DNA of 64,000 bases from Dehalococcoidia bacterium (GTDB lineage Bacteria > Chloroflexota > Dehalococcoidia > Lucifugimonadales > Australimonadaceae). Under the pieces are notes generated by a model. It was given only the letters and a program-made list of their open reading frames with translations. It was not told the DNA's origin and did not search any database. Below, piece by piece: positions 1-48,149 of this stretch (within the stretch, counting starts at the first letter, position 1; each line of letters starts with the position of its first letter). Position numbers and translations under genes: made by a program. The stretch is taken from contig DAOUJO010000003.1 of the NCBI GenBank assembly GCA_034422595.1, positions 197,761 to 261,760 of the forward strand, read 5' to 3'.

Positions 1-258
1 CTCGCGGGGGTCAGTTTCGCCGGGCAGTTCGGACGCAGGCTCTGTCCTACTCTGGCGCCGCAGAAGGCTCTCTCCGGTGTCAGCTTCCGGCTTGCCACGC
101 CGGAGATACTGCACCCAGTCCTCCGGCTCCTTCATCAGCACGATGTCTCCGTCCACGACGGCTGCCGCTAACCTGTCTCCAGGGCTGATGCTCACCTCCC
201 TGAGGATGGCGACGGGTATGGTGACCTGGTTCTTGCTGCTGACGGTTATCGTGCGCAT
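1..258 (-). CDS. AbrB/MazE/SpoVT-type antitoxin-like DNA-binding protein; its 3' end runs off the window
   Basis: Absent from the ORF track because it is open-ended. ATG at 258-256 on the minus strand. Translation MRTITVSSKNQVTIPVAILREVSISPGDRLAAAVVDGDIVLMKEPEDW... stays open to position 1. The KNQVTIP...GD pattern is the SpoVT-AbrB signature. GAGG lies about 8 nt upstream. Confidence 0.5.
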   Translation of the reverse strand, partial: MRTITVSSKNQVTIPVAILREVSISPGDRLAAAVVDGDIVLMKEPEDWVQYLRRGKPEADTGESLLRRQSRTEPASELPGETDPRE

Positions 259-35858: not shown

Positions 35859-38387
35859 TCACTCCCCTGCATCCTCCGGCGGCGACGAGCGTTCTTCGCT
35901 GTCGCTGCCCCAACAGACGGGCGTGCCGTCCGCTTCCAGCGCGCAGGTGTGGTCTGTTCCTGCGCTGATCGCCACGAACGTCTTGCCTGTCGGCGGTGAT
36001 GACTTATCGTGGTCATCCTTACCCCAGCATTGGGGCGTGCCGTCATCCCTGAGCGCGCAGCTGTGCCGTCGTGCACACGAGATTGAAGCGAAGTCACTGC
36101 CCGTGGGAGCAGATAATAGGTCCCATCTGTCACTGAATCCCCAGCAGGCGATGGAGCCGTCCGTCTTGATCCCACACGTGTGCAGGTCGCCCGCACTGAT
36201 TGCCGTGAACGTGGCGTCTTCCGGTGGTGTCATCTGGCCGTAGTCGTTGCTAACGCCTCCCCAGCACAAGGGGATGCCGTTCGCTTGGAGCCCGCACGTG
36301 TGCGTTTCCCCCGCGCTGATCGCCGTGAACGTCTTGCCCTCCGGCGGCGATGATTGCTTACTCCCGTCGCCGCCCCAGCACGCGGGCGTGCCGTCGCTCT
36401 TCAGTGCGCACGCGTGGATGTACCCGACACTGATGGTGGTGTACGTGTTGCCGGAGGGAGGAGTGGACTGGTGATAGTTGTTGTCGTCGTCGCCCCAACA
36501 GGCAAGTGAGCCGTCGGTCTTGAGTCCGCACGTGTGTGAGCCGCCGGTGCCGATGGCAGTCAACGTCGTGTCTGCGGGCGGTGACGATTGATTCTTGGAG
36601 TTGTCGCCCCAGCAGACGGGCGTGCCGTCTGATTCGAGCATGCATGAATGCGCATCGCCTGCTCCAATGGTCCGTTGAGACGCTGGCTCGGGGTCAGGTG
36701 CTGGTTCCGGCGTAGGAGTAGGTGTTGGTGTCGGAGTAGGAGTTGCCGTAGGAGTAGGTGTCGGGGTGGGCGTGGGAGTAGGGGTAGGCGTGGGAGTAGG
36801 GGTAGGCGTGGGAGTAGGGGTAGGTGTGGGAGTAGGCGTAGGAGTACCCGTTGGTGTCGCGGTAGGTGTCGGCGTCGGTGTGGGTGTAGGAGTGGGCGTA
36901 GGGGTAGCCGTAGGTGTCGCAGTAGGCGTGGGCGTAGGCGTGGGCGTAGGAGTAGGCGTGGGGGTCGGTGTGGGCGTTGCCGTTGGAGTCGGCGTCGGGG
37001 TAGGTGTCGGGGTTGGGTCCAGGGTGGGTGGGGATGATTGCCCCGAGCCGTTGCTGCCCCAACAGACGAGTATGTCGTCAGATGTCAGCGCGCAGGTGTG
37101 CTGTTCCCCAGCGCTTATCTGCACGAACGTCGAACGGGTGGGAGGCGTGGACTGGCCCTGGTCGTCCTTGCCCCAACAGACGGCCGTCCCGTCGGAAGTC
37201 AAGGCGCAGCTATGGCGCCATCCGCAAGAGAGCGAAGTGAACGTCTGATCGGTAGGCACGCCGGATACCTGGTTCTCGTTGTCCAGTCCCCAGCAGACCA
37301 CGAAGCCGTCCGATTTGATCCCGCAGGTATGGAGATAGCCCGCGCTGATCCTGGTGAACGTGGTATCCGCCGGAGGCGTTACCTGGCCGCGGTCGTTGTC
37401 CACGCCGCCCCAACACACTGCAGTGCCGGTGGTGGTGAGGGCGCAGGTGTGAGTCTCTCCGGCAGTTATCGCCGTGAAGGTCGAGTCTGTCGGTGGGGAC
37501 GATTGGTCCTTCTCATCATCACCCCAACAGATTGGCGTGCCATCGCTCTCCAACGCACAGGTATGAACGTATCCTGCGCTGACGCTGACGAACGTCTTGC
37601 CAGAGGGAGGGGACGCCTGTCCGTTGTCGTCCTCTCCCCAGCAGATGGGCGAACCGTCGGCTTTGAGCCCGCACGTGTGTGACCCACCGGCGGTGATGCC
37701 GGTCAATGCGGTGCCTGCAGGCGGAGACGATTGGTCCTTCTCGTCGTTACCCCAGCAGACGGGTGTGCCGTCTGACTCGAGTGCACATGCATGGAGGCCG
37801 CCCGCTCCTATGGTCTGCTGAGCTGCTTCCATTATGGGCACAGGCGTAGGAGTAGGCGTCGGTGTGGGTGTTGGAGTAGGTGTCGGAGTAGGCGAAGGGG
37901 TTGGAGTGGATGTAGGCGTTGGTGTTGGTGGAGGGGGCGGCGCGGGAGTATTGGTTGGCGTAGGAGAAGGTGTCGGGGTAGGGGTGGGTGTGGGAGTGGG
38001 CGTAGAGGTTGCACCAACGTTACGCGCCTTGACGGACGTCGGCGGTGGCGTCGGGGTAGGAGTGACCGTAGGTGTGGGCGTGGGCACGAGGGTTGGGGTC
38101 GGGGTTGGGACAGGAGTGCGTGTGGGAGTGGGGAATGCTGTCGGCGTCGGAGATGGAGTCGGCGTGACGGTCGATGTGGGGGTGGGAGTAGTGTAGGCGG
38201 CGGCGGTCGGTACAGGTGTACTTGTTGGAGTTGGCGTAGGCGTGGGAGTTGACGTCGGAAGCGGCGTAGGCGTTGGAGGAGCCTCGGGGATCGGGATGAA
38301 GGACGAGGCTGAGGCGTCATCGCATGCGCATATCAGTACTATCAGACTGATACTGATAAGAAGCAGCGGTAGGCGGCGTGGTACCAA
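35859..38387 (-). CDS. exported protein with two tandem seven-bladed RCC1-like beta-propellers separated by long Pro-Thr linkers
   Basis: TTG start. The N-terminal hydrophobic signal [22 protein letters not shown] is followed by about 150 aa of PT-rich linker. Then come seven repeats of G-x-x-H-[TS]-C-[AG]-[LI]-x-x-D-G-x-x-x-C-W-G, about 110 aa of near-pure (PT)n, and seven more repeats. Confidence 0.8.
36684..37025. repeat. low-complexity (ACN-CCN)n tract encoding Pro-Thr linker 2
   Basis: Plus strand reads ggtgtnggngtagg... hexamer-like repeats. It generates spurious GVGVGV ORFs on the opposite strand. Boundaries are approximate. Confidence 0.8.
37836..38282. repeat. low-complexity tract encoding Pro-Thr linker 1
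   Basis: Same ggngtngg periodicity as 36684..37025 but more degenerate (also S, A and V codons). Boundaries are approximate. Confidence 0.75.
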
Positions 38388-38516
38388 GTGATGTGCGGCA
38401 TGGTTGGATGCCGCAGATTGGCATCCACCACGGTTAGAAGATGCTGCAAGGATAGAGGTTCTATGATACTGTTATCAATCTACTGTGCTGGACAGGCTCA
38501 GGATGAGAGGGCACGC

Positions 38517-39221
38517 CTAGCCGCCGGAGACGGGTTTGGGTGCGCTCGGAGGAGTGATGCGCGGGGGACGGAGGTAGCGCGGAGCGATGGCCGTCGCGCT
38601 GCCCGCCTCGCCCGACGCCAGCATCGCCGCGCCAAGCTCCGCCGCGCCCGACAGGCGCATCAGCGGCGCCGACTCGGTCACGAACCGCGCATCCGCGCCC
38701 ATGCGCTCACGCAACGCGTCTTCCACGTCAGCCGCCGACTCGCCGCAGAAGAGCGTGCCGCCGGACTGCGCGGCTGCAAACTCAGCGATGGGGGAGACCT
38801 GCTCCTCGCTCAGCGCACTCCACGAGCCGTCGTCCATGCCGTAGACGGCCCAGGCCACGACTCCCCTGCCCGCGGGGAGCACCGCGCAGATGCGCTCCAC
38901 AGTCAAACGGCAGGGATACGCCGAGGCTTCCAGCGTGCTCACTCCGGCCACCGGAAGCGACCACGCCACCGCCAGCCCCTTCGCGACGCCGATGCCGGTG
39001 CGCAGTGCGCTGAACCCGCCGGGCCCGACGCTCACGACGATGCCGTCCAGCGCATCCGGCGCGACTCCCTCCGCTTCCGTGAGCCACCGGACCGCGGGCA
39101 TGAGCTCCGCAGTGTGGTTGTTGCGGGAGCGCCAGGAGACGGAGCGCGACAGCCCGTCCCGCCAGACCGCCGTCGCCCCGTAGCGCGTGGAGGTGTCTAT
39201 GACCAGGTACGCCGTCATCAT
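38517..39221 (-). CDS. tsaB: tRNA t6A37 biosynthesis protein TsaB (YeaZ)
   Basis: MMTAYLVIDTSTRYGATAV...GIVVSVGPGGFSALRTGIGVAKGLA. The start overlaps the tsaE stop (ATGATGA). Confidence 0.85.
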   Translation of the reverse strand: MMTAYLVIDTSTRYGATAVWRDGLSRSVSWRSRNNHTAELMPAVRWLTEAEGVAPDALDGIVVSVGPGGFSALRTGIGVAKGLAVAWSLPVAGVSTLEASAYPCRLTVERICAVLPAGRGVVAWAVYGMDDGSWSALSEEQVSPIAEFAAAQSGGTLFCGESAADVEDALRERMGADARFVTESAPLMRLSGAAELGAAMLASGEAGSATAIAPRYLRPPRITPPSAPKPVSGG

Positions 39222-39703
39222 GCCTCCGCCTGCAACGCGGCGAGCAGCCGGACGTAGCGCTCGCCGTGCGGCTCCAGCGTCAGCACCCGGGCATCCGGCG
39301 TGGCGCCGAAGGCGATGCCGACCGCAAGGTGCTCGTCAGGAAAGACGGCCTGCGCCTGCTCCGGCCATTCGACCACGCACGCTCCTTCCTCCAGCATCTC
39401 GCCGAACGCCAGATCGTCTATCTCGAGGTCGCCGCCATCCATCCGGAAGAGGTCCACGTGGTAGACGGGGATGCGGCCCCGGTACTCGTGCACGAGCACG
39501 AACGTCGGGCTGTGCGCGTAGCCGGTCACACCCGCTCCCCAGGCGACGCCCTGCGTCAGCGTCGTCTTGCCCGCGCCGAGCGTTCCGCGCAGCAGATAGA
39601 GGTCGCCGGGCTCCGCAAGCGCGCCGAGCCTGCGCCCGAGCGCCTGCGTCTCCTCGGCGCTGTACGTTTCGAACCGGGTATCCGTCACCGCAAGTGCTCC
39701 CAT
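39218..39703 (-). CDS. tsaE: tRNA t6A37 biosynthesis ATPase TsaE (YjeE)
   Basis: ...LYLLRGTLGAGKTTLTQGVAWG...SPTFVLVHEY...VYHVDLFR. The ATG at 39703 overlaps the thiL end by 19 nt. The longer track ORF was rejected. Confidence 0.85.
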   Translation of the reverse strand: MGALAVTDTRFETYSAEETQALGRRLGALAEPGDLYLLRGTLGAGKTTLTQGVAWGAGVTGYAHSPTFVLVHEYRGRIPVYHVDLFRMDGGDLEIDDLAFGEMLEEGACVVEWPEQAQAVFPDEHLAVGIAFGATPDARVLTLEPHGERYVRLLAALQAEA

Positions 39704-40677
39704 CCTTCGATGTCGATAGAGACCGGCTCGCCGCGCCCCGCGACGAATGAGATACCGCCCGCCGGACCCTCCGTGATCTCGCCGATAACCACGCTGCCGG
39801 GGATCTCGGAAACGGCGTCCTGCACGAGGTCCGACGGGCCGGTGAACAGTAGTTCGTAGTCCTCGCCGCCGCCCAATGCCAGCCGCATCGCATCCGGGCG
39901 GAACTCGCTCCGGAGCGCATCCGCCGCAGGCACATGGTCGACCTCGACCCGCGCCGCGACGCCGGACGCTTTCGCGAGCTTGGGCAGGTCGGCGGCGAGC
40001 CCGTCCGACAGGTCCATCGCGCAGCGCACGCCGACGCGGCGGAGCACGGCGCTCGCGTCCGTCCGCGCTGCGGGCCTGCGGTGCGCAAGCGCAAGCGCCT
40101 GCCGCGCGGGGGTGTCCAGCCCGGCGCCGCTCTCCAACAGCAGCAGTCCGCCGCGCGAGCCGCCGAGCGGGCCGGTGACGGCGAGCGCGTCGCCGGGGCG
40201 GGCCGCCGACCGGGACAGCGGCGTGGCGCTGCACACGCCGGTCATGGCGACGGTAACGAACGCGACGGGCGAGCCGACGATGTCCCCGCCCATCAGTTCC
40301 GTGCCGTAGACGGCGCACGCTTCCAGCATGCCGTCGTACAGCGCGTCAACGTCGCCCACGTCGAGGTCGGCGGGCAGGCCGAGCGATACCAGGCCTGCGA
40401 AGGGCGAACCGCCCATGGCGGCGATGTCGCTCACGTTGGAGACCCACGCCTTCCAGCCCACGTCCGCCCATGACGCGGTGGACGTGCGGAAATGGACGCC
40501 CTCGACCATCGTATCGGTCGTGGCGGCCTGCACGCCGGCCACGCGCCACGCGGCAGCGTCGTCCCCGATGGCGGTGATGACGCGCCCACCCATCGCCTGC
40601 AGCGGGCTGGCACGGCGCACACGCTCGACGATGCGCTCGATCAGCGCCGTCTCCCCCAGTTCTCCGACCGTGGTCAT
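39685..40677 (-). CDS. thiL: thiamine-monophosphate kinase
   Basis: MTTVGELGETALIERIV...IGDDAAAW...MVEGVHF... is the AIR-synthase-like fold. Confidence 0.9.
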   Translation of the reverse strand: MTTVGELGETALIERIVERVRRASPLQAMGGRVITAIGDDAAAWRVAGVQAATTDTMVEGVHFRTSTASWADVGWKAWVSNVSDIAAMGGSPFAGLVSLGLPADLDVGDVDALYDGMLEACAVYGTELMGGDIVGSPVAFVTVAMTGVCSATPLSRSAARPGDALAVTGPLGGSRGGLLLLESGAGLDTPARQALALAHRRPAARTDASAVLRRVGVRCAMDLSDGLAADLPKLAKASGVAARVEVDHVPAADALRSEFRPDAMRLALGGGEDYELLFTGPSDLVQDAVSEIPGSVVIGEITEGPAGGISFVAGRGEPVSIDIEGWEHLR

Positions 40678-40781
40678 GGGGGCATTATCGCAAAAACGTC
40701 CGCCGCGGAGGGGTCTCCTTCGACAAGCTCAGGATGAACGGGCTTTTGTCAGCGCGGGGCGTATACTGGTCTCAGGGCAAC

Positions 40782-42287
40782 ATGTCACGACTATCCCTCA
40801 CCACTCTGCTCGCCGCCGCCTTCCTTGTCGCAGGGTGCACCTCCACGGCCTACACGCCCGAGCCGCCCACACCGACCCCGACGCACACGCCGACCCCTGC
40901 GCCGACGGCCACTCCCGCCCCCACGAGCGCACCCGCATCAACGTCGGATCACCCCTACGACCCGAACAACACGATGTGGCGCATCTTCAGCACCACCGAC
41001 CAGACGTTCGAGTCCCTGCAGCTTGCCCTCGACGACGCCGTTGCGGCGAACGACACCTCCCAGGTGCCCATCATCGTGGAGATCATGCGTTTCAGCGGCG
41101 CGCCTGCGGTGATGGACGCGTACCGGGAGGCGCTCGTGAGCCTCACCGGCCAGGACTTCTGGCTCGATCCGCCTGCGTGGAATGCGGCGATGGAGTGGCT
41201 GGGGCCCCGCAGGGACGAGTTCCCTCCGCCGGACGAGTACCTGGACTGGAAGGTGAACATCCTCGGGCTCATCGACCCGCGCATGGCGGCGTTCTTCAGC
41301 GCCGCCCCTGGCTCGGAGCGCATCGATCTCACGGAGGCCGTCTGGGGCGGGGTACGCACCGACGGCATCCCCGACCTCCAATTCGCGCCCACGCTCACCC
41401 CGGAGGAGGCGGACTACCTGGACCCGCGCGACCGTGTCTTCGGCGTCTCCATCAACGGCGAGCACCGCGCCTATCCGCTGCGCATCATGAACCCGCACGA
41501 GATGGCGAACGACCGGTTAGGAGGCGAGCCGATAGCGCTCGCCTACTGAACGCTCTGCTTCAGCGGGATCGTGTATTCCGCAAAGATAAACGGGGAGCCC
41601 ACCACGTTCGGCACGTCCGGCATGCTCTACCAGAGCAACAAGCTGATGTACGACCGCACGACGAACTCGATCTGGAACCAGTTCACGGGCGAGCCCGTCG
41701 TCGGCCCGCTGGCGGACAGCGGCATCAAGCTCGACTTCTTCCCGTCCGTGCTGACGACGTGGGAGGAGTGGCTGGCCGAACACCCGGACACGACGGTACT
41801 GAACGTCGATACCGGCGTCTACTCGCCAGCCGTCTATGCCCACGAGTGGGAGCCGCACGCCATCTACTTCGACTACTTCTCATCGCCCCGGACGATGTTC
41901 CCGGTCTTCAACCGGGACGAGGCGCTGCTCCCCAAGGAGACGGTCATCGGCGTGGGCATCGGTGGGGACTACAAGGCTTACCCCGTCTCCGCGTTTCAGG
42001 AGGAGCCGGTCATCAACGACGTGGTGGGCGGGCAGGAGATCGTCATCACCGGATCGAGCACCTGGGGCACGGGCAGGGTCTACGAGCGGGGTGGACAGAC
42101 GTTCGCCGGGGAAGGCGAAGGACTGCGGGACTCGGACGGAGCGCTGTGGACCATCGGCGAGGATGCGCTGACCCGGGCGGACGGCGCCGGGACGCTGGCC
42201 CGCATACCGACGATAACGTCGTTCTGGCACGGGTGGTTCTCGTTCCACCCGGATACCGCCCGCTACGAGGGCAGCCAGTCCGGTTAA
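40782..42287 (+). CDS. DUF3179 lipoprotein with one in-frame TGA (41547..41549): candidate selenoprotein or recently inactivated pseudogene
   Basis: Track ORFs 40734..41549 and 41571..42287 share one frame and are separated by a single stop. Lipobox LLAAAFLVAGC, then a PT linker. The DUF3179-type domain is continuous across the stop (...GGEPIALAY-TGA-TLCFSGIVY...FGTSGMLYQSNKLMYDRTTNSIWNQ...). Confidence 0.6.
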
Positions 42288-42296
42288 AAGGAAGAA

Positions 42297-42312
42297 GGCG
42301 GGTCTCCCCGCC
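42297..42312. terminator. GC hairpin between convergent genes (possible bidirectional terminator)
   Basis: GGCGGG-TCTC-CCCGCC lies 10 nt after the DUF3179 stop. The flanks are only weakly T/A-rich. Confidence 0.35.
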
Positions 42313-42475
42313 CTTCATTCCTCTGCCAGCGTTCCCGGCACACCTCTTATCCGTCGCTCCTTCGCGTATCGAGGGCGGAGCCACCCATGTCCGTGCCGGT
42401 GTTCGTCTGCAACACTCATGCTACCGGCAGAGTATTGCGTCCCCGTTACACGAACGTTAAGGGAGTGTTACGGCT

Positions 42476-43747
42476 TCAGGCTGCGCCCACGTACATCTTC
42501 TGCATGAGCGCGTCCTGCCAGCGGACGCTGTCCGGCAGCACCTCTTCGATGGCGCGGATGTGGTAGTAGGAGTCGTTCGCGCCCAGGGGAGTCCCGCCGT
42601 CCTCCATCGTGCGTATCGCCTGCATCAGCATCTTGCGGGCGGTGATGACGGCGCGGTCGGTCTGGCCGAGGTGCTCCTGGCTGCGGTCGACGATAGGCTT
42701 CATCGCCTCCTGCACTGCCCGGTCCTGCGCGTTGATGCCCTTGATGCCGGTGAACGTGTCGGTACGCTGGATATCGCGGTCGATCAGCCAGTTGTTGCGC
42801 GGGTTGCGCAGGCTGCGCCACGTCGTCTGGTCGACGTCGTCGGGGCCGTTGCCGGTGGCGAGCTCGTCGCGCTCAGCCTGGGTGAGAGGCTCGTCAAGCG
42901 TGTAGAACCAGTTCCAGACCATGGTGGTCTCGTCGTCCATGGGCACCCAGTGGTGTCCGGCGATCTTGAACTTGAACCAGGAGCCGTCGTTGTTCAGCTG
43001 CGCCGCACGGATCTGGACGTGGGGCATCACGTAGTGGTAGGTGCGGACGTAGTTGGCGTCCTCGCCGGGCAGAGGGCGGACCGAGCCGTAGCGGTAGCCG
43101 TAGTCCGTGGGCTCGACCTCCAGCTTCGAGGCCGTTGCCTTGGCGCGCAGACCGTCCAGGCCCCCCGCCCCGCCGGTGCCGAACTTGCGATGGAGGAAGG
43201 ACGAGTGCACCGAGTCGATGCCGCCTTCCAGCGCCTGCAGCCAGTTGCACTCCTCGATGACCTTGGAGGCGTGCCGGTGGGTCTGGGGTTGCCGCGTGAA
43301 CTCGAACGAAGGCTCGGGCGGCGTCTGCTCCTTCGGCCCCATGTAGGTCCAGATGACTCCGCCCAACTCCACGGTCGGGTATGCCGTGATTCGCACCTTG
43401 CGGCTGAAGTCGTACTGCGCCGGTTCGTTGGGCATGTCGACGCACGCGCCGTCCACGTCGAACTTCCAGCCGTGGTAGACGCAGCGGATGCCGCTCTCCT
43501 CGTTCCGGCCCAGCCAGAGCGACGTAAGGCGGTGGGGGCACCACTCGCTCATGAGGCCGACGCGGCCCGACGTATCGCGGAACGCGATGAGGTCCTCGCC
43601 GAGGATACGCAGGCGCAGGGGGTCGCAGTCGGGGTGCGGCAACTCGTGAGAGATGAGGACGGGCTGCCAGTAGCGGCGCATCAGCTCGCCCATCGGCGTG
43701 CCGGGCCCCACGCGGGTCAGTCGCTCGTTGTCCCTGGTCGAAAGCAT
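42476..43747 (-). CDS. Rieske (2Fe-2S) non-haem iron oxygenase, alpha-only (phthalate/KshA-like) type
   Basis: ...MRRYWQPV...CPHRLTSL...CVYHGWKFD... is the Rieske CxH / CxxH motif. No adjacent beta subunit. Confidence 0.85.
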   Translation of the reverse strand: MLSTRDNERLTRVGPGTPMGELMRRYWQPVLISHELPHPDCDPLRLRILGEDLIAFRDTSGRVGLMSEWCPHRLTSLWLGRNEESGIRCVYHGWKFDVDGACVDMPNEPAQYDFSRKVRITAYPTVELGGVIWTYMGPKEQTPPEPSFEFTRQPQTHRHASKVIEECNWLQALEGGIDSVHSSFLHRKFGTGGAGGLDGLRAKATASKLEVEPTDYGYRYGSVRPLPGEDANYVRTYHYVMPHVQIRAAQLNNDGSWFKFKIAGHHWVPMDDETTMVWNWFYTLDEPLTQAERDELATGNGPDDVDQTTWRSLRNPRNNWLIDRDIQRTDTFTGIKGINAQDRAVQEAMKPIVDRSQEHLGQTDRAVITARKMLMQAIRTMEDGGTPLGANDSYYHIRAIEEVLPDSVRWQDALMQKMYVGAA

Positions 43748-43823
43748 ATCGGCTTCCTCTTATGGTCCCTGAGGTTTTCGATGGTTTGTACGCCCCACGG
43801 GGGAGGCCTGTCAACGAGCCGGT

Positions 43824-45233
43824 TCACCCACCCCGCAGCAAACGGAGGAAGTCCGTGACGTCCGCTACGTCGTCGAGACCTTCCGTCATGTCGATGACCT
43901 CGTCGATCGTTGCGTCGTTCAGCGGCGTCCCGGCGTGGACGGCGCAGGCGCGGAACTTCTGGTGGCGCTGGTCGTCGGTGAGCGGGTTGTCGCGATGGCC
44001 CGGGGCGGCGTCCACGCGCTCGGAGAGGGTCTCGCCGCCGGCGAGCGTCACTTCCACGACGCCGGACTTGCCGAGCGATTCGTCCACCTCGTATTCGGTG
44101 ACGTTGGCGATGCGCAGGCACGTCTCCTCGAACAGCCCCTGCGGGGTGGGCTGGAGGTCGGCCAGCGTCACGTTGCCGGTGGTGAGCGCGCGGGCGGTCG
44201 CGAAGATGATCGAGTCCTCGGCCTCGACGGGCGCCTGCGGGTTGCGGCGGGTCTGCAGGGGCTCGCAGAACGTCTGGATGTGCGGTTCGCCTCGCAGCAG
44301 CACGTGGGTCACTGTCGACGGGTCGGGCACACGCGTCGCTCGCAGGTTCGCGGCGGCCTCGATGAACACGTGCGCGACGCCGGTGGTGGGCCACGGCTTG
44401 ATGCCCACGTTCAGCAGATGCCACTCTTCGCCGAGGCCGTCGCTCATCGCAGGGCGGTGGAACACGCCGCCGTAGTAGGTGGGGAAGAAGCCTGCCGCGC
44501 CCTCGAACGCGTCGCAGTCGCCGAGCAGCCCCTCGCGCGCCAGCAGCACGCTCTGCATCCCGGCCTGGCAGGAGAACGCGGCGTAGATCGCTTTCGCGGG
44601 ACGCCCCTCCAGCACGGGTTGCCGTCCGCCGGACGCCTGCATGAACGCGAGTCCGAGCGCGCTGTGCGTCTCCCGCGGAGAGAAGCCGAGCATGCGCGAC
44701 CCGCTCATTGCCGCGGCGAAGCAGCCCGGCATCTGCGTCGGCTGCGGCCTCGATTCCGTGAACGCGCCCTGTGTCGCGGTGATGGCAATGCCGATGCGCG
44801 ACATGAGCTCCATCCCCGCCGCCAGCGCGGTCATGAACTCCCTGCCGGACGCCCCGCCCCGTAACTCCGCGGCCACGAGCGCCGTCGGCAGCGTCACCGG
44901 CCCGAGGTGGCCGGAGCCGACGGCGGTGGTGTCGTCGAAGTTCAGCGCGTGCGCCATGCCCCCGTTCAGCATCGCGGCCACGGCGGCGGGCAGCCTGTCC
45001 GGCAGGCCGATGAGCGATGCCTCCTCGACGCCGCCGGCGCGCCGTGCCCAGGCGAGCAGCTCCGGGATGCCGATGCCGAGCGTGTTGGCCGCGATGGAGG
45101 TGGCGAGCGTGTCCAGCGTGATCGAGCGGACCGTGCGGCGCACGCTCTCCGGCAGGTCGTCGTACGTCAGCTCTGCGCCGAACCGCGCCCACAGGGAGGT
45201 CAGCTCTTCCACGCCTGCATCCCGTGTCGTCAT
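43824..45233 (-). CDS. MmgE/PrpD family protein (2-methylcitrate dehydratase-like)
   Basis: 469 aa, ...LTYDDLPESVRRTVRSITLDTLATSIAA... is a typical PrpD-family N-terminus. Confidence 0.85.
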   Translation of the reverse strand: MTTRDAGVEELTSLWARFGAELTYDDLPESVRRTVRSITLDTLATSIAANTLGIGIPELLAWARRAGGVEEASLIGLPDRLPAAVAAMLNGGMAHALNFDDTTAVGSGHLGPVTLPTALVAAELRGGASGREFMTALAAGMELMSRIGIAITATQGAFTESRPQPTQMPGCFAAAMSGSRMLGFSPRETHSALGLAFMQASGGRQPVLEGRPAKAIYAAFSCQAGMQSVLLAREGLLGDCDAFEGAAGFFPTYYGGVFHRPAMSDGLGEEWHLLNVGIKPWPTTGVAHVFIEAAANLRATRVPDPSTVTHVLLRGEPHIQTFCEPLQTRRNPQAPVEAEDSIIFATARALTTGNVTLADLQPTPQGLFEETCLRIANVTEYEVDESLGKSGVVEVTLAGGETLSERVDAAPGHRDNPLTDDQRHQKFRACAVHAGTPLNDATIDEVIDMTEGLDDVADVTDFLRLLRGG

Positions 45234-45299
45234 TCCACGCTCCTTCCAACTCTATCGGCGGTGTGCATTATGACACTCATGCAGTAGTAGCATGCGCTC

Positions 45300-46025
45300 A
45301 TGCGAACGCTCATCGTCAGCGACGTGCACAGCAACCTCACCGCGCTCGACGCCGTTCTGGCGGCAGCAGAGGCGGACGGGCTGGTGGATGCCGTGTGGTG
45401 CCTGGGGGACATCGTGGGGTACGGGCCGTGGCCGCTCGAGACCGTCCGGCGCATCCGCTCGCTCGACGCGGTCTGCATCCAGGGTAACCACGACGCCGGA
45501 GCGATCGGACGCATCAGCCTGGACACGTTCAACTACGCGGCACGTGAGGCATGCCGGTGGAACGGGGAGCAGCTGGACGATGAGACGCGTTCCTTCTTGG
45601 AGGGTCTTCCCGACACCGTTGCCGTCGCCGACTTCACGCTCGTTCACGGCACGCCGAGGGACCCGCTCTGGGAGTACCTGACCGGCCATGCCGACGCCGT
45701 CGCAGCACTCGCAAGCATCGGCACGCGCGACGTGCTGGTCGGCCACACGCACCACCAGTTCGCATTCGAGGACGGACGCGGCGCGGCATTGCCGGGGCCT
45801 GGCGGGCTGACCGTGACGCGGGACGGCGGGCGTCTCGTCGTGAATCCGGGGAGCGTGGGGCAGCCTCGCGACCACGACCCACGCGCCGCCTTTGTCGTCT
45901 ACGACAGCGAGGCGGACACGCTGTCGCTGCGCCGGGCCGCGTACGACGTCGCTGCGACCCAGCGTGCGATGGAGCAGGCCGGTCTGCCGGAGCCGCTCAT
46001 CTCACGCCTGAGCGCGGGGCGCTGA
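45300..46025 (+). CDS. metallophosphoesterase (calcineurin-like)
   Basis: MRTLIVSDVHSN...CLGDIVGYG...GNHD...GHTH motifs. Confidence 0.8.
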   Translation: MRTLIVSDVHSNLTALDAVLAAAEADGLVDAVWCLGDIVGYGPWPLETVRRIRSLDAVCIQGNHDAGAIGRISLDTFNYAAREACRWNGEQLDDETRSFLEGLPDTVAVADFTLVHGTPRDPLWEYLTGHADAVAALASIGTRDVLVGHTHHQFAFEDGRGAALPGPGGLTVTRDGGRLVVNPGSVGQPRDHDPRAAFVVYDSEADTLSLRRAAYDVAATQRAMEQAGLPEPLISRLSAGR

Positions 46026-46057
46026 CCCGCACCCCCCTTCCGTACTCCTTGACTGGG

Positions 46058-46066
46058 TGATAGAAT
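46058..46066 (+). promoter_or_regulatory. possible extended -10 promoter element for rpsP
   Basis: TGATAGAAT lies 44 nt upstream of the rpsP ATG. The same TAGAAT hexamer occurs in the ilv leader promoter. Confidence 0.3.
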
Positions 46067-46109
46067 CCACAGGCTTATACCGTCCAACCACTGGAGGCGA
46101 CAACTTCTC

Positions 46110-46361
46110 ATGCTCCGAATCCGTCTGCGCCGAGTAGGCAAGAAGAAGCAGCCGAGCTACCGCATCGTGGTGGCTGACGTGCGGTCGCCCCGCGACGGCA
46201 GATTCGTCGACCAGGTTGGACATTACAACCCGCTGACCGACCCGCCCACGGTCGTGGTCAACGAGGAGAAGGCCCGGCACTGGCTCGGGGTCGGCGCGAA
46301 GCCCACGGACACCGTTCAGCGCATCCTCCAGACGCAAGGAGTCGTCGAGAAAGCGGGGTAG
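46110..46361 (+). CDS. rpsP: 30S ribosomal protein S16
   Basis: MLRIRLRRVGKKKQPSYRIVVADVRSPRDGRFVDQVGHYNP... Confidence 0.95.
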   Translation: MLRIRLRRVGKKKQPSYRIVVADVRSPRDGRFVDQVGHYNPLTDPPTVVVNEEKARHWLGVGAKPTDTVQRILQTQGVVEKAG

Positions 46362-46364
46362 CCC

Positions 46365-46592
46365 ATGAAGGAACTGGTGGAATACATCGCCAGGGCCATC
46401 GCCACTCATCCCGACGACGTGAAAGTCACCGAGGAGGAAGAGGACGGCCAGATCATCATCAAGCTGGAAGTCCATCCTGACGACAAGGGGAAGGTGATCG
46501 GGAGGCAGGGCCGCGTGGCGCAGGCGATGCGCGTGCTGCTCCGCGTTGCCGCCATCAAGGAAGGCACCCGCACCAGCCTGGAGATCGTCTGA
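46365..46592 (+). CDS. KH-domain RNA-binding protein (YlqC/UPF0109)
   Basis: 75 aa, ...VIGRQGRVAQAMRVLLR... has a GxxG KH motif. It sits in the conserved position between rpsP and rimM. Confidence 0.8.
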   Translation: MKELVEYIARAIATHPDDVKVTEEEEDGQIIIKLEVHPDDKGKVIGRQGRVAQAMRVLLRVAAIKEGTRTSLEIV

Positions 46593-46601
46593 TCCTGCCT
46601 C

Positions 46602-47213
46602 GTGCCGACCACCTCCGGCAACACGCCCCAGCAGCAGCCTGACAACCTCGTCGCCGTTGGCGTCGTTCTCCGCGCGCACGGCAGCGACGGCCGCGTTCGC
46701 GTTCAGCCGGAGACCGACAACCCCGGGCGCTTCCGCAAGGGGGCCCGTCTCCTCGCCGGCGACCGGGAACTCCACGTCGAGCGCGTCCAGCGGATGCCCG
46801 ACGGCTCCCTGCTCCTGCGCTTCACGGGCATCGCCGTGCGTGGCGACGCTGCGGCCCTGCAGGGAGAGACGCTCTTCGTGCCAGCGGATGAGGCGCCGGA
46901 GGCCCCGCCCGGCACGTACTACCACTACCAGCTCGTCGGCATGAGCGTCGAGGACGAGGCCGGCGAGCGCCTGGGCACGCTCACCGAGATCGTCGCCACG
47001 GGAGCGAACGACGTGTACGTCGTCACCGGGGAGAGCGCGGAGCTGCTCCTCCCCGCGGTGGCGGACGTGATCGTCGGCGTGGACGTGCGGGCCAACAGCA
47101 TGACCGCCGCCGTGCCGGAGGGGTTGTCCTGGCGCGCGCTGAACCCGCCGCGCGGGAAGAAGAAGCCCCGCCGCCGCGCGCCGCGCAGGCCGGAACCCAC
47201 GCACGGCGGGTAG
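46602..47213 (+). CDS. rimM: 16S rRNA processing protein RimM
   Basis: ...VAVGVVLRAHGSDGRVRV...YYHYQLVGMSV...GANDVYVV... GTG start. Confidence 0.85.
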   Translation: MPTTSGNTPQQQPDNLVAVGVVLRAHGSDGRVRVQPETDNPGRFRKGARLLAGDRELHVERVQRMPDGSLLLRFTGIAVRGDAAALQGETLFVPADEAPEAPPGTYYHYQLVGMSVEDEAGERLGTLTEIVATGANDVYVVTGESAELLLPAVADVIVGVDVRANSMTAAVPEGLSWRALNPPRGKKKPRRRAPRRPEPTHGG

Positions 47214-47274
47214 AACGCAGGCGCGGTTTTGTCCTATCCTGCTTCCGTCCAATCCACGTGAGAGGAGCCTCTAC

Positions 47275-48036
47275 ATGTCCGGTCACTCCAAGTGGTCCAC
47301 CATCAAGCACAAGAAAGCCGCGCTGGACGCGAAGAAGGGCGCGCTCTTCACCAAGCTCGCGCGCGACATCGCCGTCGCCGCGCGTGAAGGCGGCAGCGGC
47401 GACCCCAACATGAACTTCCGGCTGCGCCTGATGATGGACAAGGCCCGCGCCGCCAACATGCCCGCCGACAACGTCGACCGCGCCGTCAAGAAAGGCCTCG
47501 GCATCGGGGGCGACGGCGTCTCGTTCGAGGAGATCGTCTACGAGGGCTACGCCCCCGGTGGAGCGGCCATCATGGTGAAGGCGCTCACGGACAACCGGAA
47601 CCGCACCGCCTCCAACGTGCGCGCCGTCTTCTCGCGCGGCGGCGGCAACCTCGGCGAGGCCGGGTCCGTTGCCTGGATGTTCGAGAGCAAGTCCGTCGTC
47701 ACCGTCGAGGAGGTGTCCGAGGAGCAGGCGGAGGAGATCGCGCTTGCCGCCATCGACGCGGGCGCGGAAGACTTCAAGGTGGAGGACGGCGTCCTGGAGA
47801 TCACGGGCGCCCCGAACGGGCTGGAGCCGATAGCCGCCGCGGTGAAGGAGGCCGGCGTCGAGCCTGCGCAGGCCACCGTGACCATGGTCCCCTCCAACAC
47901 CGTCGAGCTCGACAGTGGCCACGCGGGACAGACCCTCCGCCTGCTGGACAACATCGAGGACCTGGAAGACATCCAGCAGGTCTTCACCAACGCCAACTTC
48001 ACCGACGAGGCGCTGGAGAAGTACAGCAACGCCTAG
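47275..48036 (+). CDS. yebC: YebC/PmpR family DNA-binding regulator
   Basis: MSGHSKWSTIKHKKAALDAKKGALFTKLARDI... Confidence 0.9.
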   Translation: MSGHSKWSTIKHKKAALDAKKGALFTKLARDIAVAAREGGSGDPNMNFRLRLMMDKARAANMPADNVDRAVKKGLGIGGDGVSFEEIVYEGYAPGGAAIMVKALTDNRNRTASNVRAVFSRGGGNLGEAGSVAWMFESKSVVTVEEVSEEQAEEIALAAIDAGAEDFKVEDGVLEITGAPNGLEPIAAAVKEAGVEPAQATVTMVPSNTVELDSGHAGQTLRLLDNIEDLEDIQQVFTNANFTDEALEKYSNA

Positions 48037-48149
48037 CCGGGCCTGCGCGTCATCTGGCGCAGGTGAGCCCCCAGGGAACGACAGGCGCGCGGGTGTGATA
48101 GGCTACGGGATCCGTCGCCGGGTATGGCGGCAAGAAGGAGTAACCAGCC

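Follow-up and report, generated by a model that had tools for sequence, protein, structure and literature searches.

A putatively lipid-anchored protein with two predicted disulfide-stapled propellers on Pro-Thr stalks in a sponge-associated SAR202 bacterium

The window, i.e. the whole 64-kb stretch of DNA analysed here, carries a single copy of a gene whose product strings two seven-bladed propeller domains along two Pro-Thr-rich (PT) stalks (Table 1). In our preferred reading, held with moderate confidence, this is an extracytoplasmic lipid-anchored protein of sponge-associated SAR202, with its two stapled propellers serving as binding modules. The gene is real, since its orthologues evolve under purifying selection (dN/dS 0.15–0.33), and the TTG start codon is kept in 7/7 orthologous loci. 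ThiL, encoded upstream on the same strand, is 94–99% identical to its counterparts in Dehalococcoidia/SAR202 metagenome-assembled genomes (MAGs), one of which, bin16 (MPMJ), was binned from the sponge Aplysina aerophoba.

The initial annotation of this DNA had proposed a plan of hydrophobic N-terminal signal, PT linker, seven repeats, (PT)n run and seven further repeats, and the open reading frame, Pfam matches and residue composition all confirm it. The repeats are marked by 14 ‘CWG’ units, seven per propeller, with the consensus G-x-x-H-[TSA]-C-[AGM]-[LI]...C-W-G. Successive units lie 38, 38, 38, 40, 39 and 38 residues apart in propeller 1 and 38, 40, 38, 40, 39 and 38 residues apart in propeller 2, and the repeat signal is far from chance. 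The protein has 32 cysteines: two in the signal and lipobox, 28 in the blades (each having one in HxC and one in CWG), plus one more in each sixth blade. A period of about 38 residues and some 30 cysteines had been anticipated, and the sequences then quoted for blades 5 and 6 proved exact. Stalk 1 also carries a short basic island that is conserved among orthologues.

Table 1. Positions of the gene, its predicted segments and a candidate promoter in the window
Feature	Residues	Position	Strand	Basis
Complete CDS, 842 aa + stop		35859..38387	(-)	TTG start; ORF call
Lipoprotein-type signal peptide (predicted)	1-22	38322..38387	(-)	PS51257-type pattern + hydropathy
Stalk 1, 163 aa, 71% P+T	23-185	37833..38321	(-)	Composition
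Propeller 1, seven blades of 38-40 aa	186-455	37023..37832	(-)	Pfam, AlphaFold2, Foldseek
Stalk 2, 113 aa, nearly pure (PT)n, 89% P+T	456-568	36684..37022	(-)	Composition
Propeller 2, seven blades	569-842	35862..36683	(-)	AlphaFold2; 62.8% identity to propeller 1
Sigma-70-like promoter candidate, TTGATA-18-TATCCT		38449..38478	(-)	Consensus match only, ~60 nt upstream of TTG

The N-terminus has the makeup of a lipoprotein signal, with an RR n-region, a hydrophobic core and the lipobox L-I-C-A-C, in which Cys22 is both the predicted lipidated residue and, from the lipobox pattern, the predicted first residue of the mature protein. As a pattern, the lipobox [LVI][ASTVI][GAS]C (PROSITE PS51257) is matched with its end at Cys22; the C-[AG]-C motif is kept in all orthologues, and the cysteine at lipobox position −2 is unusual. 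A hydropathy scan of the 842 residues found no transmembrane-like segment beyond this single N-terminal hydrophobic stretch, which together with the pattern match bears out the export signal expected from the outset. Judged by its sequence, the protein is probably exported and tethered to the membrane at the cell surface: signal-peptidase-II-type processing would leave Cys22 lipidated and so anchor the protein to the outside of the cell membrane.

Searches with RCC1 models, which had been proposed as a check, recovered the repeats in full. Pfam RCC1_2 (PF13540) matched 14 stretches (E = 1.1e-99; 324.5 bits against a cut-off of 22) and the RCC1-like domain PF25390 scored 228.2 bits against a cut-off of 150; the G-x-x-H...WG core was recognised by PF00415 and PF25390, and an NCBIfam scan of the protein returned nothing relevant. 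Among solved structures, a sequence search placed nearest the CRINKLY4 ectodomains of Physcomitrella (PpCR4; 7A0K, E = 1e-29) and Arabidopsis (ACR4; 7A0J, E = 1e-26) and the inhibitor BLIP-II (1JTD/3QHY, E = 1e-25), with UVR8 and RCC1 many orders of magnitude behind. AlphaFold2 models of both halves, built on a 91-sequence alignment, reached a pLDDT of 96.2 and a pTM of 0.92 for propeller 1 and 95.5 and 0.91 for propeller 2, each with 21 strands and hence seven blades of three strands. In Foldseek, propeller 1 matched BLIP-II (1jtd_B) with an rmsd of 1.7 Å over 254 columns (TM 0.79/0.80; about 30–31% identity) and PpCR4 with a TM of 0.79, whereas matches to RCC1/UVR8-type structures needed 330–370 columns at an rmsd of 4–6.7 Å. 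The models thus display the seven three-stranded blades, the period of about 40 residues and the closed ring of the BLIP-II class, and with the BLIP-II match they uphold the two closed seven-bladed propellers that had been proposed.

Canonical RCC1, i.e. the Ran GEF type with seven four-stranded blades of 51–68 residues, was considered as a class and rejected on the period of 38–40 residues and the three strands per blade. RCC1, UVR8, HERC2 and RPGR belong to a common propeller superfamily with our domain and share its seven blades and G-x-x-H...WG core, but these canonical RCC1-like proteins, besides their longer four-stranded blades, are cytoplasmic or nuclear and lack disulfides. What did not survive is the suggestion of an unusual ‘mini-RCC1’ blade, as the blade of about 39 residues is the established BLIP-II/CRINKLY4 ‘crinkly repeat’ type, covered by RCC1_2. 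As modelled, the domain is a BLIP-II-type fold with CRINKLY4-type staples.

CRINKLY4 is built of seven ‘crinkly repeats’ of about 39 residues, each stapled by a disulfide; its crystal structures (7A0J, 7A0K) show one disulfide per blade, a feature that has been presented as peculiar to the plant receptor. Both cysteines of every blade in our protein align column for column with those of PpCR4 and ACR4, and in the 91-sequence alignment these columns show either no change or a conservation of at least 90%. By analogy, each blade is probably stapled by one disulfide linking the strand 2 cysteine (HxC) to the strand 3 cysteine (CWG). The two cysteines per blade reported earlier stand, although the one-disulfide-per-blade pattern was already known from the CRINKLY4 crystals. 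The likeness extends to an extracellular, membrane-tethered setting (predicted here) as well as to the repeat number, the repeat length and the C...CWG pattern. In contrast, CRINKLY4 is a plant receptor that crosses the membrane once, through a transmembrane helix, and also has a TNFR-like Cys-rich domain and a cytoplasmic kinase; our protein differs in having two propellers and a predicted lipid anchor. Pfam and hydropathy found no TNFR-like domain, transmembrane helix or kinase in our protein, and the receptor function of CRINKLY4 is not transferable because these parts are absent. In CRINKLY4 the propeller pore is filled by an N-terminal strand; the AlphaFold2 models of our protein show only the 21 blade strands, the first of which (residues 8–10) belongs to blade 1.

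BLIP-II, from Streptomyces exfoliatus (PDB 1JTD, 3QHY), is a secreted seven-bladed propeller with only three antiparallel strands per blade, and binds class A β-lactamases with pM–fM affinity. Our protein resembles it in the period of about 39 residues, the RCC1_2 match and the seven three-stranded blades predicted here, whereas BLIP-II consists of one free propeller, has neither a lipid anchor nor PT stalks, and carries Leu or Ala where the present protein has its blade cysteines. At the turn between strands 1 and 2, propeller 1 has L, S, V, T, L and R in place of six aromatic residues (W/Y/F) that we take to be hot spots of β-lactamase binding in BLIP-II. An inhibitor of the BLIP-II kind would be expected to keep the aromatic and acidic loop residues in contact with class A β-lactamases; because the turn aromatics are unconserved, the BLIP-II target is not transferable, and from the sequence we would not expect the present protein to bind β-lactamase. 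The initial annotation had made its interpretation depend on there being no well-characterised family of known function: the family is in fact a recognised one, with two characterised members, but neither function transfers to this protein.

The two propellers are related to each other in register. Blades of the same index are 63% identical, against 45–52% at any other register shift, and their lengths match in part (blades 4 and 11 have 40 residues, blades 5 and 12 have 39). Over 269 residues their identity is 62.8% (69% at the DNA level). When 240 relatives are compared, each propeller still finds its closest match in the other, and the runners-up reach 47–49%. The in-register similarity and reciprocal best matches agree with the whole-propeller duplication suggested at the outset, and origin of the second propeller by such a duplication is supported at the sequence level. 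This event was not recent, given a dS of about 1.3 between the halves. PT-coding repeats flank propeller 1 on both sides and could make gain or loss of this module easy.

Twin-propeller orthologues are present in six related MAG loci, two of them cut by the locus end. Five (L001, L010, L005, L003 and L006) are 70–86% identical at the amino acid level and share the signal and the basic island of stalk 1, with a stalk 2 that varies. The L004 locus covers 345 residues (about 41% of the protein), over which identity is 78%. Across orthologues, the two propellers are set apart by a CWG-to-CWG gap of 97 to 157 residues. Another relative, L002, encodes a 459-residue version whose one propeller has 95% identity with propeller 2 of both L003 and L006; its lack of propeller 1 and one stalk could reflect either recombination between PT repeats or collapse of the assembly. 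When compared with L003, L006 and L005, the gene has a dS of 0.5–1.0, which exceeds the 0.2–0.4 of the flanking genes, so that synonymous divergence from these three relatives is about 2–4 times that of the neighbours; dN is also higher. Diversifying selection was rejected on the dN/dS values given above, which show no sign of it, and per-position variability among orthologues places the variable sites across the loops, with no obvious binding face.

The exact protein sequence has no record among the public assemblies searched, but related proteins are abundant. When 1.84 billion cluster representatives (50%-identity clusters) were searched exhaustively with HMMER, 130,179 matched at E ≤ 1e-3, 79,014 at ≤ 1e-10 and 18,163 at ≤ 1e-30. 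About half of the 148 newly returned top-scoring representatives have at least 10 CWG units with a modal spacing of 37–39 residues, and up to 84 such blades occur in single proteins of this set. A word-based search with the full-length protein, in which the 8000 candidates sharing most words were scored, reached proteins of about 0.6–1.75 times the query length, the close orthologues being found separately in their loci; a single-domain query hid multi-propeller relatives. A lipobox start is found in 79/230 mid-sized relatives, commonly followed by a PT-rich linker, and several mid-sized relatives have 13–16 blades. Trypsin-like or subtilisin-like protease domains share the polypeptide in about a quarter of the 120 mid-sized relatives listed. 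In other relatives the added domains are of the FN3, LRR, solute-binding, hydrolase or DnaJ/CAP kind, and a PT-rich stretch is often found at another place in the chain; some relatives bear SLH domains (PF00395).

Compared with our protein, the multi-propeller and multidomain RCC1_2 proteins of Chloroflexota and other bacteria have in common the Cys-stapled blade of 37–39 residues, in some of them in numbers from 14 to 84, and the Chloroflexota set often shows a lipobox and PT linkers as well, whereas most RCC1_2 relatives have one propeller or added enzyme or adhesion domains. The bare plan of lipobox, PT, propeller, PT and propeller was seen only in the close orthologues, as far as the word-based search goes, which may have missed others. 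None of the short blade, the cysteines and the multiple propellers is unusual, and few propeller types are as common in bacteria as this family. Since precedents exist for the fold, for the short blade of three strands and for one disulfide per blade, the gene alone adds little new biology. It does show that the CRINKLY4-style disulfide-stapled blade, described as plant-unique, is widespread in bacteria. A minor possibility is that the CRINKLY4 ectodomain of plants descends from bacterial Cys-stapled propellers of this kind.

A surface binding or capture module, as the protein was first described, is a reasonable inference by analogy. We propose that the two PT spacers (163 and 113 residues), presumably extended, set the propellers serially away from the membrane, and that the stalks may reach tens of nanometres. 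The propellers, as closed seven-bladed rings of three-stranded blades of about 38 residues, would most likely bind an extracellular protein, or a macromolecule of another kind, in the sponge matrix; contact would be made through their loop faces, in the manner of BLIP-II and of the proposal for CRINKLY4. A binding role is suggested because BLIP-II is a secreted picomolar protein binder and the CRINKLY4 ectodomain, a monomer, has a putative ligand groove; behaviour as a recognition module is suggested because relatives join the propeller to protease, FN3, LRR and hydrolase domains. Propellers of sponge SAR202 on long PT stalks, alone or in one polypeptide with proteases, are therefore candidates for recognition of host matrix or substrate, in an uncultured sponge-symbiont lineage that probably has no cell wall and in which whole propellers are apparently gained or lost. 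With a defined ligand, this very large bacterial subfamily would receive its first function.

Other roles can be weighed against this one. The missing propeller 1 of L002, the varying stalk lengths and the raised synonymous divergence would fit a more specialised device, i.e. a symbiosis-specific surface adhesin or capture protein of sponge SAR202 that binds a component of the sponge matrix and whose modules recombine in the PT-coding repeats to give strain-level surface variation; we regard this as a minor possibility. An alternative that dispenses with an external ligand makes the stalks and propellers a structural component of the envelope, in a surface layer or spacer lattice of a wall-less cell. 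The long and probably rigid PT linkers would suit such a lattice, as would an organism probably without peptidoglycan and a family expanded among Chloroflexota surface proteins, some with SLH domains. We nevertheless consider it unlikely, as there is only one copy in the window, propeller 1 is absent from L002 and hence dispensable, and CRINKLY4 ectodomains are monomers.

It is quite unlikely, in our view, that the protein acts like BLIP-II as a tethered proteinaceous enzyme inhibitor, clamping extracellular serine hydrolases such as β-lactamase/PBP-type enzymes or proteases of the host or competitors. BLIP-II, with its pM–fM affinity, is the best structural match, and many paralogous propellers share a polypeptide with serine proteases; yet the identity to BLIP-II is only about 30%, its six turn aromatics are replaced in propeller 1, and sponge SAR202 genomes have been reported without peptidoglycan synthesis genes, leaving no obvious place for a PBP or β-lactamase partner. 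Most improbable of all is a eukaryote-like RCC1 effector delivered to the sponge host and acting on Ran-type GTPases, a role suggested by the Pfam RCC1/RCC1_2 matches, by the sponge association of the lineage (eukaryote-like repeat proteins are a reported trait of sponge symbionts), and by the RCC1-repeat effectors of Legionella, described as targeting the Ran cycle (PMC7157520). The three-stranded blades of 38 residues are of a different kind from RCC1 blades (51–68 residues, four strands), to which matches took 355–370 columns at an rmsd of 4.7–6.7 Å; a lipobox anchor together with 14 predicted disulfides points to oxidising surroundings outside the cell and not to host cytosol, and the context of the gene holds no secretion-system genes. 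Our literature search on RCC1 repeats in sponge Chloroflexi found nothing specific.

The surroundings of the gene are in keeping with the earlier remark that no neighbour suggests a function. Genes for SnoaL-like, epimerase, dehydrogenase and amidohydrolase proteins lie downstream and tsaB-tsaE-thiL upstream. The latter are inside a 9.6-kb segment (38509–48063) that is inverted relative to 6/7 of the closest genomes, with a breakpoint roughly 100 bp ahead of the start codon; no convincing inverted repeats were found at the ends of the inversion. A functional link to tsaB-tsaE-thiL was thus rejected, as the adjacency was made by a lineage-specific inversion and is absent from most relatives. 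No terminator was predicted after the gene. The upstream stretch of about 100 bp, to about 38488–38505, stays with the gene where the neighbouring segment is inverted in relatives, and because it contains the promoter-like site of Table 1 the gene probably forms a transcription unit by itself.

The DUF3179 gene (coordinates in the table) carries its TGA at 41547-41549, within the surroundings ...IALAY-TGA-TLCFSG..., and this in-frame TGA is kept in all of the related loci checked (10/10). Read as U, the codon generates a U-x-x-C motif, and DUF3179 appears on a published list of prokaryotic selenoprotein families with the motif UxxC/T (PMC9312934). The product also displays an LVAGC lipobox and a PT linker. 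A gene broken by a stop codon could be read as a pseudogene, a reading disfavoured by the conservation of the TGA, the resulting motif and the listing of the family. On the strength of these same three observations, we consider the product to be probably a selenocysteine-containing lipoprotein. A small hairpin begins 13 nt 3' of the TGA and is not statistically distinctive; no tRNA-Sec was found within the 64-kb window.

Coordinates of the features discussed (L002, locus of a related Dehalococcoidia MAG)
Feature	Location	Strand	Description
DUF3179 gene	window 40734-42287	+	single reading frame broken by one in-frame TGA
Inverted segment	window 38509-48063		~9.6 kb; tsaB, tsaE, thiL, DUF3179 and further genes
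Single-propeller allele	L002 966-2423	-	459 aa; counterpart of window 35859-38387
Third Cys, blade 6	residue 388 (propeller 1), residue 771 (propeller 2)		[10 protein letters not shown] and [10 protein letters not shown]
Basic island in stalk 1	window about 38040-38075, residues ~105-116	-	short, conserved, breaks PT stalk

The inverted segment is reversed relative to six close Dehalococcoidia MAGs (L002-L006 and L010) and shares its orientation with a further related locus, L001. One breakpoint lies ~100 bp upstream of the propeller gene start, and a search for inverted repeats at both ends of the segment returned no clear ones. At window 45274-45284, L001 holds ~2.5 kb extra (L001 2889-5435) with no counterpart in the window, while the flanking sequence is otherwise 93-95% identical; the difference is an insertion or a deletion.

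Synonymous divergence of the propeller gene reaches a dS of 0.5-1.0 against L003, L005 and L006, compared with 0.2-0.4 for the neighbouring tsaB and tsaE in the same genome pairs (~2-4 times higher), a hint that the locus holds older alleles or has undergone recombination. In the L001 and L010 comparisons the dS of the propeller gene is similar to that of the flanks. The L002 allele lacks propeller 1 and one PT stalk, and the single propeller left matches propeller 2 of L003 and L006 at 95% identity. Either the missing part was truly deleted between PT-coding repeats, or the short-read assembly collapsed there.

The third Cys of blade 6 has no evident partner; that of propeller 2 is present in all orthologues, and that of propeller 1 is replaced by Gly in L003 and L006. 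The basic island of stalk 1 reads [11 protein letters not shown] in the window protein and xGRRSxPTS in L003 and L006, and could represent either a site of processing or shedding, or a recognition motif.
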